The notes: generated by a model not told the origin, from the sequence alone. A stretch of 64,000 nt of DNA from Escherichia coli (GCF_003334815.1 NZ_QOWO01000012.1); one strand, 5' to 3'. Shown: positions 18,888-36,731, counted from the first letter of the stretch. Numbers and translations are program-made.

Positions 18888-19898
18888 ATGAGACGAGAAC
18901 TTGCCATCGAATTTTCCCGCGTCACCGAATCAGCGGCGCTGGCTGGCTACAAATGGTTAGGACGCGGCGATAAAAACACCGCGGACGGCGCGGCGGTAAA
19001 CGCCATGCGTATTATGCTCAACCAGGTCAACATTGACGGCACCATCGTCATTGGTGAAGGTGAAATCGACGAAGCACCGATGCTCTACATTGGTGAAAAA
19101 GTCGGTACTGGTCGCGGCGACGCGGTAGATATTGCTGTTGATCCGATTGAAGGCACGCGCATGACGGCGATGGGCCAGGCTAACGCGCTGGCGGTGCTGG
19201 CAGTAGGCGATAAAGGCTGCTTCCTCAATGCGCCGGATATGTATATGGAGAAGCTGATTGTCGGGCCGGGAGCCAAAGGCACCATTGATCTGAACCTGCC
19301 GCTGGCGGATAACCTGCGCAATGTAGCGGCGGCGCTCGGCAAACCGTTGAGCGAACTGACGGTAACGATTCTGGCTAAACCACGCCACGATGCCGTTATC
19401 GCTGAAATGCAGCAACTCGGCGTACGCGTATTTGCTATTCCGGACGGCGACGTTGCGGCCTCAATTCTCACCTGTATGCCAGACAGCGAAGTTGACGTGC
19501 TGTACGGTATTGGTGGCGCGCCGGAAGGCGTAGTTTCTGCGGCGGTGATCCGCGCATTAGATGGCGACATGAACGGTCGTCTGCTGGCGCGTCATGACGT
19601 CAAAGGCGACAACGAAGAGAATCGTCGCATTGGCGAGCAGGAGCTGGCACGCTGCAAAGCGATGGGCATCGAAGCCGGTAAAGTATTGCGCCTGGGCGAT
19701 ATGGCGCGCAGCGATAACGTCATCTTCTCTGCCACCGGTATTACCAAAGGCGATCTGCTGGAAGGCATTAGCCGCAAAGGCAATATCGCGACTACCGAAA
19801 CGCTGCTGATCCGCGGCAAGTCACGCACCATTCGCCGCATTCAGTCCATCCACTATCTGGATCGCAAAGACCCGGAAATGCAGGTGCACATCCTCTGA
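18888..19898 (+). CDS. glpX: Fructose-1,6-bisphosphatase class II
   Basis: 336 aa from MRRELAIEFSRVTESAALAGYKWLGRGDKNTADG. Confidence 0.95.
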   Translation: MRRELAIEFSRVTESAALAGYKWLGRGDKNTADGAAVNAMRIMLNQVNIDGTIVIGEGEIDEAPMLYIGEKVGTGRGDAVDIAVDPIEGTRMTAMGQANALAVLAVGDKGCFLNAPDMYMEKLIVGPGAKGTIDLNLPLADNLRNVAAALGKPLSELTVTILAKPRHDAVIAEMQQLGVRVFAIPDGDVAASILTCMPDSEVDVLYGIGGAPEGVVSAAVIRALDGDMNGRLLARHDVKGDNEENRRIGEQELARCKAMGIEAGKVLRLGDMARSDNVIFSATGITKGDLLEGISRKGNIATTETLLIRGKSRTIRRIQSIHYLDRKDPEMQVHIL

Positions 19899-19920
19899 TT
19901 GATTTGATCGATTGAGCCTT

Positions 19921-19948
19921 CCAGTCCTTCGGGACTGGAATTTTTTTG
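19921..19948 (+). terminator. Rho-independent terminator after glpX
   Basis: CCAGTCCttcGGGACTGGaattttttt. Confidence 0.85.
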
Positions 19949-19994
19949 TTCGGAGAACGAAGATAAGGCAAGTCAATCAAAACAGGAGAAAAAC

Positions 19995-20741
19995 ATGGCT
20001 GATTGGGTAACAGGCAAAGTCACTAAAGTGCAGAACTGGACCGACGCCCTGTTTAGTCTCACCGTTCACGCCCCCGTGCTTCCGTTTACCGCCGGGCAAT
20101 TTACCAAGCTTGGCCTTGAAATCGACGGCGAACGCGTCCAGCGCGCCTACTCCTATGTAAACTCGCCCGATAATCCCGATCTGGAGTTTTACCTGGTCAC
20201 CGTCCCCGATGGCAAATTAAGCCCACGACTGGCGGCACTGAAACCAGGCGATGAAGTGCAGGTGGTTAGCGAAGCGGCAGGATTCTTTGTGCTCGATGAA
20301 GTGCCGCACTGCGAAACGCTATGGATGCTGGCAACCGGTACAGCGATTGGCCCTTATTTATCGATTCTGCAACTAGGTAAAGATTTAGATCGCTTCAAAA
20401 ATCTGGTCCTGGTGCACGCCGCACGTTATGCCGCCGACTTAAGCTATTTGCCACTGATGCAGGAACTGGAAAAACGCTACGAAGGAAAACTGCGCATTCA
20501 GACGGTGGTCAGTCGGGAAACGGCAGCGGGGTCGCTCACCGGACGGATACCGGCATTAATTGAAAGTGGGGAACTGGAAAGCACGATTGGCCTGCCGATG
20601 AATAAAGAAACCAGCCATGTGATGCTGTGCGGCAATCCACAGATGGTGCGCGATACACAACAGTTGCTGAAAGAGACCCGGCAGATGACGAAACATTTAC
20701 GTCGCCGACCGGGCCATATGACAGCGGAGCATTACTGGTAA
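19995..20741 (+). CDS. fpr: Ferredoxin/flavodoxin-NADP+ reductase
   Basis: 248 aa MADWVTGKVTKVQNWTDALFSLTVHAPVLPFTAGQFTKLG. Confidence 0.95.
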   Translation: MADWVTGKVTKVQNWTDALFSLTVHAPVLPFTAGQFTKLGLEIDGERVQRAYSYVNSPDNPDLEFYLVTVPDGKLSPRLAALKPGDEVQVVSEAAGFFVLDEVPHCETLWMLATGTAIGPYLSILQLGKDLDRFKNLVLVHAARYAADLSYLPLMQELEKRYEGKLRIQTVVSRETAAGSLTGRIPALIESGELESTIGLPMNKETSHVMLCGNPQMVRDTQQLLKETRQMTKHLRRRPGHMTAEHYW

Positions 20742-20745
20742 GCGG

Positions 20746-21174
20746 TTACTTATCGATAAACGGCACGATGAGCAAATCCGCACTCATCTTATTGATCATC
20801 CCGCGATATGCCGGCATCAAACGGTTGATAAATGAGTGATGATGACCACAGACAAGGAGGTCGCACTGCTCTTTTTGCATAATTTCCAGCAGTGTTTCCG
20901 GCATTTCTCCGCGTTCAATACGCAGTTTTGTCTTCGGCCATTGAATATTTTTCGTCAGTTTATACAGCTTGTTATCCGACTTATTCTTCAACAATTGAAG
21001 AATATCTTCTGTTGCAGGGAAGTAGATACCCGGATACAACTCGCTTAAGCCATCATCAATATGAATTAACGTCAGGTGAGCGTCATTATGTCTGGCGAGC
21101 TCCAGGGCTTTATTCACCAGTAAGGCATCTTCTTCATTCCCGGAAATTGCCACGCCAATGTGTTTATAAGCCAT
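20746..21174 (-). CDS. uspD: Universal stress protein D
   Basis: 142 aa [42 protein letters not shown]; Usp fold. Confidence 0.92.
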
Positions 21175-21200
21175 GTTTAACTCCTTCTAAAGCAACTCCA

Positions 21201-21500
21201 TCAAGCTAACGAACGCAGTGATAACTCAAAAATAATCATCTCGGCCTGGCATGAGAAAGTGAAGGCCGCATCAAGCTCAACTTGCCCCTCCAGATCCTTA
21301 ATCTTATAGGCCACGCTGGCCCCTTCATCTGCAGAGGATGTAGCGGCGGCAAGCTCTTTCAGTTTGGTCATAAAAGACTCTGCTTCTTCGCGGGTGGCAA
21401 AAAAGCGCGAAAACTTACTGGTACAGTTGTCGTTATCAATCACCGTACCGATATCAATCGCACATCCTTTAGTACTGCATTTATCTACGACATCTTTCAT
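21201..21500 (-). CDS. yiiS: Uncharacterized protein YiiS (UPF0381/DUF406)
   Basis: 99 aa ORF; position next to uspD. Confidence 0.85.
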
Positions 21501-21711
21501 AGGGCACCTCTGTATATTCGCCTCTCTGTCGATTACGACTTAAGAATAATGCGCCGTTAAGGGAAGAACAAACAAGTAATGATCTTATGGATTACCATTT
21601 TTTTTGATATTGCTTAAGGTGAAGAGTTCAGAAGGATTTTCCGGGTATTGTCATTTGCATCGTGGAAATAACAATCCCGGAAAAAAATAGCAGTAAGAGA
21701 TATATTAAAGG

Positions 21712-22959: not shown

Positions 22960-23727
22960 ATGCGACATCCTTTAGTGATGGGTAACTGGAAACTGAACGG
23001 CAGCCGCCACATGGTTCACGAGCTGGTTTCTAACCTGCGTAAAGAGCTGGCAGGTGTTGCTGGCTGTGCGGTTGCAATCGCACCACCGGAAATGTATATC
23101 GATATGGCGAAGCGCGAAGCTGAAGGCAGCCACATCATGCTGGGTGCGCAAAACGTGGACCTGAACCTGTCCGGCGCATTCACCGGTGAAACCTCTGCTG
23201 CTATGCTGAAAGACATCGGCGCACAGTACATCATCATCGGTCACTCTGAACGTCGTACTTACCACAAAGAATCTGACGAACTGATCGCGAAAAAATTCGC
23301 GGTGCTGAAAGAGCAGGGCCTGACTCCGGTTCTGTGCATCGGTGAAACCGAAGCTGAAAATGAAGCGGGCAAAACTGAAGAAGTTTGCGCACGTCAGATC
23401 GACGCGGTACTGAAAACTCAGGGTGCTGCGGCATTCGAAGGTGCGGTTATCGCTTACGAACCTGTATGGGCAATCGGTACTGGCAAATCTGCAACTCCGG
23501 CTCAGGCACAGGCTGTTCACAAATTCATCCGTGACCACATCGCTAAAGTTGACGCTAACATCGCTGAACAAGTGATCATTCAGTACGGCGGCTCTGTAAA
23601 CGCGTCTAACGCTGCAGAACTGTTTGCTCAGCCGGATATCGACGGCGCGCTGGTTGGTGGTGCTTCTCTGAAAGCTGACGCCTTCGCAGTAATCGTTAAA
23701 GCTGCAGAAGCGGCTAAACAGGCTTAA
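22960..23727 (+). CDS. tpiA: Triosephosphate isomerase
   Basis: 255 aa [32 protein letters not shown]; active-site IIGHSERR. Confidence 0.97.
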
Positions 23728-23738
23728 GTCTGACAGGT

Positions 23739-23770
23739 GCCGGATTTCATATCCGGCACTTACTTTCCTT
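23739..23770 (+). terminator. Hairpin terminator after tpiA
   Basis: GTGCCGGATttcatATCCGGCACttactttcc. Confidence 0.65.
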
Positions 23771-23781
23771 AACTCTTCGCC

Positions 23782-33657: not shown

Positions 33658-33728
33658 ATTCATCTCCAGTATTGTCGGGCGGCCGATTGTTAATGCCGCG
33701 TAAGCAGTTGGTTCATTATAGTTAATTA

Positions 33729-33750
33729 AATGATATTGAAAATGATTATC
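33729..33750 (-). promoter_or_regulatory. Fur box in sodA promoter
   Basis: minus strand reads GATAATCATTTTCAATATCATT, close to the Fur consensus. Confidence 0.7.
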
Positions 33751-33941
33751 AATGCCGTACTTTTCGTAAGGGTATGGTTTTGCAGGAAAATGCCCGAGAT
33801 GTGAAGCAAATCACCCACTTAATGCCGTGATTGCCAGTAAATCGACAACGGCGGCAACAGGCGAAAGGTTAATCGACAGCACGATTTTTACACTCATCTC
33901 GTCGGAGATGTGACGCGACGAAAAATGATGAGGATAAGAAG

Positions 33942-34976
33942 ATGAGTAACGCGATTACGATGGGGATATTTTGGCATTTGATCGGCGCGGCCAGTGCAGC
34001 CTGTTTTTACGCTCCGTTCAAAAAAGTAAAAAAATGGTCATGGGAAACCATGTGGTCAGTCGGTGGGATTGTTTCGTGGATTATTCTGCCGTGGGCCATC
34101 AGCGCCCTGTTACTACCGAATTTCTGGGCGTATTACAGCTCGTTTAGTCTCTCTACGCTACTGCCTGTTTTTCTGTTCGGCGCTATGTGGGGGATCGGTA
34201 ATATCAACTACGGCCTGACCATGCGTTATCTCGGCATGTCGATGGGAATTGGCATCGCCATTGGCATTACGTTGATTGTCGGTACGCTGATGACGCCAAT
34301 TATCAACGGCAATTTCGATGTGTTGATTAGCACCGAAGGCGGACGCATGACGTTGCTCGGCGTTCTGGTGGCGCTGATTGGCGTAGGGATTGTAACTCGC
34401 GCCGGGCAGTTGAAAGAGCGCAAGATGGGCATTAAAGCCGAAGAGTTCAATCTGAAAAAAGGGCTGGTGCTGGCGGTGATGTGCGGCATTTTCTCTGCCG
34501 GGATGTCCTTTGCGATGAACGCCGCAAAACCGATGCATGAAGCCGCTGCCGCACTTGGCGTCGATCCACTGTATGTCGCTCTGCCAAGCTATGTTGTCAT
34601 CATGGGCGGCGGCGCGATCATTAACCTCGGTTTCTGTTTTATTCGTCTGGCAAAAGTGAAGGATTTGTCGCTAAAAGCCGACTTCTCGCTGGCAAAATCG
34701 CTGATCATTCACAATGTGTTACTCTCGACACTGGGCGGGTTGATGTGGTATCTGCAATTCTTTTTCTATGCCTGGGGCCACGCCCGCATTCCGGCGCAGT
34801 ATGACTACATCAGTTGGATGCTGCATATGAGTTTCTATGTATTGTGCGGCGGTATCGTCGGGCTGGTGCTGAAAGAGTGGAACAATGCAGGACGCCGTCC
34901 GGTAACGGTGTTGAGCCTCGGTTGTGTGGTGATTATTGTCGCCGCTAACATCGTCGGCATCGGCATGGCGAATTAA
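33942..34976 (+). CDS. rhaT: L-rhamnose/H+ symporter
   Basis: 344 aa [29 protein letters not shown]. Confidence 0.96.
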
Positions 34977-35821
34977 TCTTTCTGCGAATTGAGATGACGC
35001 CACTGGCTGGGCGTCATCCCGGTTTCCCGGGTAAACACCACCGAAAAATAGTTACTATCTTCAAAGCCACATTCGGTCGAAATATCACTGATTAACAGGC
35101 GGCTATGCTGGAGAAGATATTGCGCATGACACACTCTGACCTGTCGCAGATATTGATTGATGGTCATTCCAGTCTGCTGGCGAAATTGCTGACGCAAAAC
35201 GCGCTCACTGCACGATGCCTCATCACAAAATTTATCCAGCGCAAAGGGACTTTTCAGGCTAGCCGCCAGCCGGGTAATCAGCTTATCCAGCAACGTTTCG
35301 CTGGATGTTGGCGGCAACGAATCACTGGTGTAACGATGGCGATTCAGCAACATCACCAACTGCCCGAACAGCAACTCAGCCATTTCGTTAGCAAACGGCA
35401 CATGCTGACTACTTTCATGCTCAAGCTGACCGATAACCTGCCGCGCCTGCGCCATCCCCATGCTACCTAAGCGCCAGTGTGGTTGCCCTGCGCTGGCGTT
35501 AAATCCCGGAATCGCCCCCTGCCAGTCAAGATTCAGCTTCAGACGCTCCGGGCAATAAATAATATTCTGCAAAACCAGATCGTTAACGGAAGCGTAGGAG
35601 TGTTTATCGTCAGCATGAATGTAAAAGAGATCGCCACGGGTAATGCGATAAGGGCGATCGTTGAGTACATGCAGGCCATTACCGCGCCAGACAATCACCA
35701 GCTCACAAAAATCATGTGTATGTTCAGCAAAGACATCTTGCGGATAACGGTCAGCCACAGCGACTGCCTGCTGGTCGCTGGCAAAAAAATCATCTTTGAG
35801 AAGTTTTAACTGATGCGCCAC
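34973..35821 (-). CDS. rhaR: AraC-family activator RhaR
   Basis: Chosen start gives 282 aa beginning (V)[17 protein letters not shown]; the longer ORF-track reading frame (340 aa) would overlap rhaS; start assignment is from recalled annotation. Confidence 0.85.
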
Positions 35822-35894
35822 CGTGGCTACCTCGGCCAGAGAACGAAGTTGATTATTCGCAATATGGCGTACAAATACGTTGAGAAGATTCGCG

Positions 35895-36731
35895 TTATTG
35901 CAGAAAGCCATCCCGTCCCTGGCGAATATCACGCGGTGACCAGTTAAACTCTCGGCGAAAAAGCGTCGAAAAGTGGTTACTGTCGCTGAATCCACAGCGA
36001 TAGTCGATGTCAGTAACGCTGGCCTCGCTGTGGCGTAGCAGATGTCGGGCTTTCATCAGTCGCAGGCGGTTCAGGTATCGCTGAGGCGTCAGTCCCGTTT
36101 GCTGCTTAAGCTGCCGATGTAGCGTACGCAGTGAAAGAGAAAATTGATCCGCCACGGCATCCCAATTCACCTCATCGGCAAAATGGTCCTCCAGCCAGGC
36201 CAGAAGCAAGTTGAGACGTGATGCGCTGTTTTCCAGGTTCTCCTGCAAACTGCTTTTACGCAGCAAGAGCAGTAATTGCATAAACAAGATCTCGCGACTG
36301 GCGGTCGAGGGTAAATCATTTTCCCCTTCCTGCTGTTCCATCTGTGCAACCAGCTGTCGCACCTGCTGCAATACGCTGTGGTTAACGCGCCAGTGAGACG
36401 GATACTGCCCATCCAGCTCTTGTGGCAGCAACTGATTCAGCCCGGCGAGAAACTGAAATCGATCCGGCGAGCGATACAGCACATTGGTCAGACACAGATT
36501 ATCGGTATGTTCATACAGATGCCGATCATGATCGCGTACGAAACAGACCGTGCCACCGGTGATGGTATAGGGCTGCCCATTAAACACATGAATACCCGTG
36601 CCATGTTCGACAATCACAATTTCATGAAAATCATGATGATGTTCAGGAAAATCCGCCTGCGGGAGCCGGGGTTCTATCGCCACGGACGCGTTACCAGACG
36701 GAAAAAAATCCACACTATGTAATACGGTCAT
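35895..36731 (-). CDS. rhaS: AraC-family activator RhaS
   Basis: 278 aa [46 protein letters not shown]. Confidence 0.96.

Follow-up and report, generated by a model that had tools for sequence, protein, structure and literature searches.

Closely packed convergent genes of Escherichia coli have been described from several sides. Lillo and Krakauer (2007; PMC2174442) listed 58 convergent overlaps in E. coli, with 4 nt (CTAA, TTAA, CTAG or TTAG) as a preferred length, and pointed out that any rho-independent terminator of such a pair has to sit in the coding sequence of the partner. Rho-independent terminators were predicted for one or both genes in 21 of these 58 overlaps. At the level of transcripts, Conway et al. 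(2014; PMC4161252) reported complementary 3' ends for 276 of 370 convergent operons, with a mean overlap of 286 nt. Recently, the 'excludome' of strain MG1655 was compiled from 58 strand-specific RNA-seq samples (Sanmartin, Iturbe, Rodriguez-Beltran and Lasa, 2025, NAR; PMC12288877), a pair being called an excludon if its transcripts overlap in at least 50% of the 58 samples. Table 1 of that study contains 'rhaR-rhaT' and 'uspD-fpr' among 165 convergent excludons, and uspD/fpr is used there as an example of functionally related partners. Excludon pairs showed higher synteny than other pairs and TransTermHP predicted overlapping terminators in 146 of the 165 convergent excludons, while p19 dsRNA validation failed or was not feasible for the convergent ones (PMC12288877). 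Transcript ends were charted by Adams et al. (2021, eLife; PMC7815308), who determined 3' ends by Term-seq under three growth conditions and used DirectRNA-seq in the presence and absence of bicyclomycin to locate Rho termination regions, 51.5% of which were antisense to genes. Finally, overlapping bidirectional terminators (Ju et al., 2019, as presented in bioRxiv 10.1101/2022.10.23.513370) form a class in which one stem-loop in the spacer is shared by both genes and acts independently of Rho.

Here, the convergent pairs fpr/uspD and rhaT/rhaR were analyzed within a stretch of 64,000 nucleotides of E. coli DNA, referred to as the window. Gene names and limits were obtained by transferring the RefSeq annotation of MG1655 to the window and comparing it with ORF lists, which gave the order katG ... 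glpFKX, fpr, uspD, yiiS, yiiR ... sodA, rhaT, rhaR, rhaS, rhaBAD. Relative to MG1655, the first 39.9 kb of the window carry seven substitutions (14454, 22311, 32895, 34159, 36004, 37169 and 39327), and the window is 184 bp shorter at about 39946, in the REP-element array of the repeat-rich rhaA-rhaD spacer; past this point MG1655 annotation coordinates equal window coordinates + 184. Both junctions are left untouched by these differences. Many E. coli strains, K-12 MG1655 among them, share a 1.4-kb stretch around the fpr/uspD junction at 100% identity, and this stretch was present in all 5,426 complete E. coli genomes searched. Judged from its sequence, the window is an E. coli K-12-like chromosome, the source of which is close to MG1655 and is not MG1655 itself.

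The fpr coding region, which encodes a ferredoxin/flavodoxin-NADP+ reductase of 248 aa (19995..20741, + strand), ends in TACTGG TAA with the stop codon TAA at 20739..20741. On the - strand, uspD (universal stress protein D, 142 aa; 20746..21174), the second gene of the yiiS-uspD pair, ends in a stop codon at 20746..20748 that reads TTA on the + strand, and the two stops are separated by the 4-bp spacer GCGG (20742..20745). The 4-bp distance given by the sequence-only reading is right to the base according to the sequence, the ORFs and the RefSeq annotation. The same three sources bear out the stop codon overlap that it described at 34973..34976. There, rhaT (L-rhamnose/H+ symporter, 344 aa; 33942..34976, + strand, stop TAA at 34974..34976) and rhaR (AraC-family activator, 282 aa as annotated; 34973..35821, - strand, stop at 34973..34975) have TTAA in common, the canonical 4-nt convergent overlap, and two bases belong to both stop codons. 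Mis-annotation of the stops at the junctions was ruled out by the lengths of homologues. Fpr is exactly 248 aa long in most of the 120 best homologues listed, and the alignment spans the complete query (100%) for all of them but one, which reaches 92%. RhaT has 344 aa in most Enterobacterales, and RhaR has 282 aa in Salmonella, Klebsiella and Citrobacter. At the other end of rhaR, a mechanically called ORF reaches upstream to a GTG at 35995 (340 aa; extra part 35822..35995, - strand) and overlaps the 3' end of rhaS (35895..36731), while the annotated start gives 282 aa. Upstream of fpr, a canonical intrinsic terminator (19919..19950, Term-seq 3' end at 19945) separates glpX from fpr.

To place the published 3' ends on the window, the 61-nt strings of the Term-seq table were matched exactly. 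Base 51 of a string marks the 3' end, as was confirmed with the sgrS and glpX terminators of the same table, and subtracting a U00096.3 coordinate from 4134467 gives the position in the window. The class 'antisense uspD' was assigned to a 3' end at U00096.3 4113600 (- strand) that was found in all three conditions, with 50,101 reads in LB at OD 0.4 and 50,738 reads in LB at OD 2.0, and the class 'antisense fpr' to one at 4113796 (+ strand) that was found in LB at OD 2.0 only, with 1,132 reads (PMC7815308). On the window the first of these gives an fpr 3' UTR of 126 nt (20742..20867, + strand), of which 122 nt are antisense to the last ~40 codons of the uspD ORF, and the second gives a uspD 3' UTR of 75 nt (20671..20745, - strand), of which 71 nt are antisense to the last fpr codons. 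The fpr-strand end is abundant, its ~50,000 Term-seq reads in two conditions being comparable to those of the glpX terminator. The table labels both ends 'antisense' only, with the parent transcript not given. Because they lie on the right strands and just downstream of the stops, and a consensus scan between the stops and the mapped ends gave no promoter-like site, we infer that 20867 and 20671 are the ends of the fpr and yiiS-uspD mRNAs, which can overlap over 197 nt (20671..20867).

Rho termination regions were reported in the same study with peaks at U00096.3 4113576 (- strand, Rho score 3.65, p = 3e-18) and 4113800 (+ strand, Rho score 2.82, p = 1.2e-5) (PMC7815308). These correspond to window position 20891 on the fpr-sense (+) strand, inside uspD, and to 20667 on the uspD-sense (-) strand, inside fpr. 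The 3' ends of both strands thus fall within regions of bicyclomycin-sensitive, that is Rho-dependent, termination in the published data. The sequence-only reading had argued that transcripts must extend antisense into the opposing gene, and 3' ends located precisely at the stop codons would have contradicted it; for fpr/uspD the opposite was seen in the published Term-seq data, in which the ends lie 126 and 75 nt past the stops, inside the opposing ORFs.

It had also been stated that neither junction has room for a conventional terminator. For the 4-bp fpr/uspD spacer this is correct, but beyond the spacer it does not hold, as a stable hairpin lies in the fpr ORF at the uspD 3' end. This RNA hairpin was predicted by folding (20675..20715, - strand; -22 kcal/mol, z = -3.6), is encoded by the last ~25 codons of fpr, and is followed after 4 nt by the 3' end of uspD (tail UCUU|UCAG). 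It may represent a candidate weak intrinsic terminator or a block to exonuclease trimming. Salmonella, a Klebsiella-like genome and a further enterobacterial genome have retained the hairpin, with 92% of cells paired across 7 taxa. Covariation among the 7 taxa was not significant: the single compensatory change was equalled by 140 of 500 shuffles, and coding constraint is therefore enough to explain the hairpin. At the fpr 3' end (20867), the structure is weak (-7.4 kcal/mol, z = 0) and the end comes just before, not within or after, the CUCUUUUUG run. With a weak structure and an end ahead of CUCUUUUUG, this end does not resemble an intrinsic terminator.

Consensus scans of both junctions detected neither intrinsic terminators nor promoters, terminator-like hits and promoter hit counts being equal to shuffle expectation. 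A search against Rfam 15 identified no known structured RNA family, with no match at E <= 1 in 19800..21700 and only two far-sub-threshold matches in 33700..36000. The C/G ratio in 60-nt windows ranged from 1.45 to 1.8 downstream of fpr and from 1.0 to 1.8 downstream of uspD, and reached 2.1 past rhaT and 2.4 past rhaR; antisense strands of genes are C-rich in general. Stretches with C > G after all four stops are compatible with Rho loading, but not specific for it.

Past the rhaT stop, folding predicted a perfect 9-bp hairpin (GAUGACGCC/GGCGUCAUC; 34993..35018, + strand) that starts after 17 nt and lies in the last rhaR codons. Together with a small adjoining hairpin it reaches -22 kcal/mol (z = -2.9), and no U tract follows. 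From its position it might form the 3'-end structure of the rhaT mRNA. Salmonella and Citrobacter have identical stems, but Klebsiella and Serratia have not retained them. Rhamnose is required for expression of the rha genes. This accounts for the finding that the tables of Adams et al. (2021; PMC7815308), whose Term-seq media do not induce either gene, hold no entry for rhaT or rhaR. RNA evidence for an overlap of the rhaT and rhaR transcripts comes from a single source, the excludon catalogue entry. The junction itself was found in 5,412 of the 5,426 E. coli genomes. In Salmonella and Citrobacter rhaT and rhaR likewise have a spacing of -4 bp (TTAA and CTAA, respectively); in Klebsiella oxytoca they lie 5 bp apart (+5 bp), and in Serratia they abut at 0 bp. 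By this comparison of genomes, the rhaT/rhaR junction is old.

The 4-bp fpr/uspD junction is present in 5,426 of 5,426 E. coli genomes. E. albertii has it as well, with the spacer GCAG, and so does an Escherichia-like assembly that is more distant. Among the loci sampled, yiiS-uspD (21201..21500 and 20746..21174 in the window) occupies this position in Escherichia only. The pair is missing between fpr and yiiR in Salmonella, in a genome resembling Klebsiella michiganensis and in a further enterobacterial genome. There, yiiR (DUF805) is itself the convergent neighbor of fpr, at distances of 106, 0 and 0 bp, respectively; the two 0-bp junctions read TAA|TCA and TGA|TCA. The 106-bp spacer of Salmonella (L011 3248..3353) contains the REP-like palindrome GCCGGATTGCAGGTCGCGCCTTATCCGAC, which may separate fpr from yiiR there. 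In several genera fpr thus has no intergenic terminator of its own, whatever gene follows, and the same tight packing with uspD or with yiiR argues against a uspD-specific design.

As a contig scan with the single UspD protein gave only E. coli and E. albertii, the view across genera was obtained from homologue searches and exact-protein contig look-ups. Homologues of UspD in Salmonella (55-65% identity) proved to be paralogues in different surroundings, one of them IS-flanked and one at a contig end, and were left out of the junction comparison; assembly L007 (UspD 77% identical) was left out as well because of fragmented gene calls. In Salmonella, a DUF406-Usp pair with 55% identity (L009 1937..3401) is located between IS66 and IS1 genes. 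This location raises the possibility that the yiiS-uspD cassette is mobile, and from its distribution the cassette looks like a gain of the Escherichia lineage that may be mobile. fpr is induced by superoxide and uspD in stationary phase. It is conceivable, although we consider it quite improbable, that a possibly mobile yiiS-uspD cassette inserted exactly at the fpr stop in Escherichia and took the place of yiiR as the gene into which the fpr 3' UTR extends, and that the 197-nt overlap, retained since then in all E. coli, may serve as a genus-specific post-transcriptional link between fpr and uspD.

Taken together, the fpr/uspD ends are very probably produced by Rho-dependent termination within the partner gene followed by trimming, with the overlap as a tolerated by-product of compaction. 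Because the coding regions abut or share TTAA, the 3' tail of each mRNA is necessarily encoded inside the coding region of the partner. RNA polymerase would run on past the stop codon, where the ribosome leaves, and the untranslated, fairly C-rich RNA would become a substrate of Rho, which would terminate within one to two hundred nt. Subsequently, 3'-to-5' exonucleases would trim the RNA back to a stable end; on the uspD side trimming would presumably halt at the hairpin 20675..20715. The overlap would then be a by-product of genome compaction that is tolerated, and cross-regulation is possible but unproven. The Rho scores of 2.8 and 3.65 are moderate, which counts against this account, as does the lack of a convincing protective structure at the abundant fpr end. 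For the uspD end, a weak intrinsic terminator is an alternative reading in view of the hairpin and the UCUUUC tail. By analogy, the same account may extend to rhaT/rhaR when the genes are induced by rhamnose.

Other convergent pairs in the window point in the same direction. Rho regions inside the opposing gene were reported in both directions for rraA/zapB (15346 on the - strand, 15860 on the + strand) and cpxA/yiiM (30510 on the - strand, 31281 on the + strand), and from tpiA into cdh (23976 on the + strand) (Adams et al., 2021). The spacers of these three pairs are 54-105 bp, and with five Rho regions in opposing genes at such distances, tight spacing is not the cause of the overlap. Antisense 3' extension is a general rule that is not tied to near-zero spacing. 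The window contains approximately nine convergent pairs, of which two have a spacer of at most 4 bp and the others 49-329 bp. If about one tenth of convergent pairs are near-zero or overlapping, a rough estimate with an estimated denominator, two tight junctions in nine are unremarkable and within chance expectation.

Alternatively, the overlap could have been selected as a functional excludon, in which the partners repress each other because their transcription interferes or because RNase III cleaves the duplex. Such an arrangement would couple fpr, a member of the SoxS regulon, to uspD, and rhaT to rhaSR. The potential duplex of 197 nt and the conservation of both junctions across E. coli, and of rhaT/rhaR across Enterobacterales, are in line with it. 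On the other hand, rhaT and rhaSR are co-induced by rhamnose and not alternately expressed, fpr is packed equally tightly against uspD in Escherichia and against yiiR elsewhere, and the hairpin at the uspD end lacks significant covariation. The synteny of excludon pairs, which exceeds that of other pairs, also speaks for selection, but the p19 dsRNA validation failed for convergent excludons (PMC12288877), and an overlap in 75% of convergent operons (PMC4161252) requires no special selection. Moreover, two expressed genes whose ORFs abut qualify as an excludon almost by default, which makes the catalogue entry weak independent evidence. Pair-specific literature on mutual repression was not found for fpr/uspD or rhaT/rhaR. 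Selection for mutual repression is thus considered unlikely; the mutual interference that the sequence-only reading had named as a potential consequence stays only a possibility, and in this cautious form that reading had interpreted the junctions correctly.

The 3' ends could also be set without Rho. Intrinsic terminators embedded in the coding regions, namely the 20675..20715 hairpin followed by UCUUUC in the case of uspD and the hairpin at 34993..35018 in the case of rhaT, would agree with the uspD 3' end lying 4 nt past a hairpin of -22 kcal/mol, with the prediction of terminators in 21 of 58 convergent overlaps (PMC2174442) and with the overlapping terminators predicted by TransTermHP in 146 of 165 convergent excludons (PMC12288877). 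However, the U tracts are poor (UCUUUC for uspD, none past the rhaT hairpin), the consensus scan detected no terminator, the peak of a Rho region lies 4 nt away from the uspD end, the arms of the hairpins are under coding constraint from fpr and rhaR as well and covariation is not significant, and the fpr end is not covered by this explanation at all. As the general cause of these ends, embedded terminators are therefore a tentative and rather doubtful explanation, while at the uspD end a weak one may contribute. Collision of head-on RNA polymerases, in which trailing polymerases dislodge those that have met and the 3' ends are set by this instead of by Rho, is supported for convergent pairs of E. 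coli by a model and single-molecule evidence, with a nascent stem-loop positioning the collision (bioRxiv 10.1101/2022.10.23.513370); hairpins near the uspD end and downstream of rhaT would fit. But the fpr end has the same position and similar reads at OD 0.4 and OD 2.0 (50,101 versus 50,738), while the uspD end was detected at OD 2.0 only, which indicates that the fpr end is independent of opposing traffic. In addition, the ends are 197 nt apart with no single shared hairpin, and both regions are bicyclomycin-sensitive, whereas the collision class is defined as Rho-independent in that preprint. Collision as the determinant of these ends is accordingly regarded as highly improbable, and Rho-dependent termination with subsequent trimming is retained as the preferred explanation.

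The feature is real, ordinary and already known: published work covers the loci, the class of overlap, the terminator problem and the antisense 3' ends. It carries little weight as a discovery, as convergent operons of E. coli normally overlap. It does provide a clean worked example of where 3' ends are placed when a spacer is missing, namely 75-126 nt into the partner gene and within Rho-sensitive regions. Should cross-regulation be demonstrated, the two junctions would offer concrete and easily manipulated examples for the largely correlative excludon concept, and rhaT/rhaSR sits in a widely used expression system.

Compared with the described systems, both pairs are arranged tail to tail on opposite strands with transcript overlap in published RNA data, as convergent excludons of MG1655 are, and the same loci are listed by name in the catalogue (PMC12288877). 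The catalogue shows overlap only, while mutually exclusive expression is the defining outcome of the excludon concept. Within the classification of Lillo and Krakauer (PMC2174442), rhaT/rhaR belongs to the 4-nt convergent overlaps and shares TTAA, whereas fpr/uspD with its 4-bp spacer falls outside this class, in the near-zero tail of the spacer distribution. The fpr/uspD ends agree with Rho termination of antisense or 3'-extended RNA (Peters et al., 2012, as cited in PMC7815308), since bicyclomycin-sensitive regions lie in the opposing gene and read-through increases with bicyclomycin at 20891 (+ strand) and 20667 (- strand) in the published data. In contrast to spurious antisense RNA from an intragenic promoter, the RNA at fpr/uspD would be the 3' extension of a bona fide mRNA. 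With the overlapping bidirectional terminators of Ju et al. (2019), as described in the bioRxiv preprint, fpr/uspD has in common that convergent genes have overlapping 3' ends, but the fpr/uspD ends are 197 nt apart and both are bicyclomycin-sensitive, and at 4 bp and -4 bp neither junction has a spacer for a shared stem-loop. Elsewhere in the window, tpiA/cdh has a canonical intrinsic terminator (23714..23774) with a Term-seq 3' end at 23764 that is classed 'primary, antisense'. By the same description, it is the tpiA/cdh pair that looks like the bidirectional-terminator class, unlike fpr/uspD and rhaT/rhaR.
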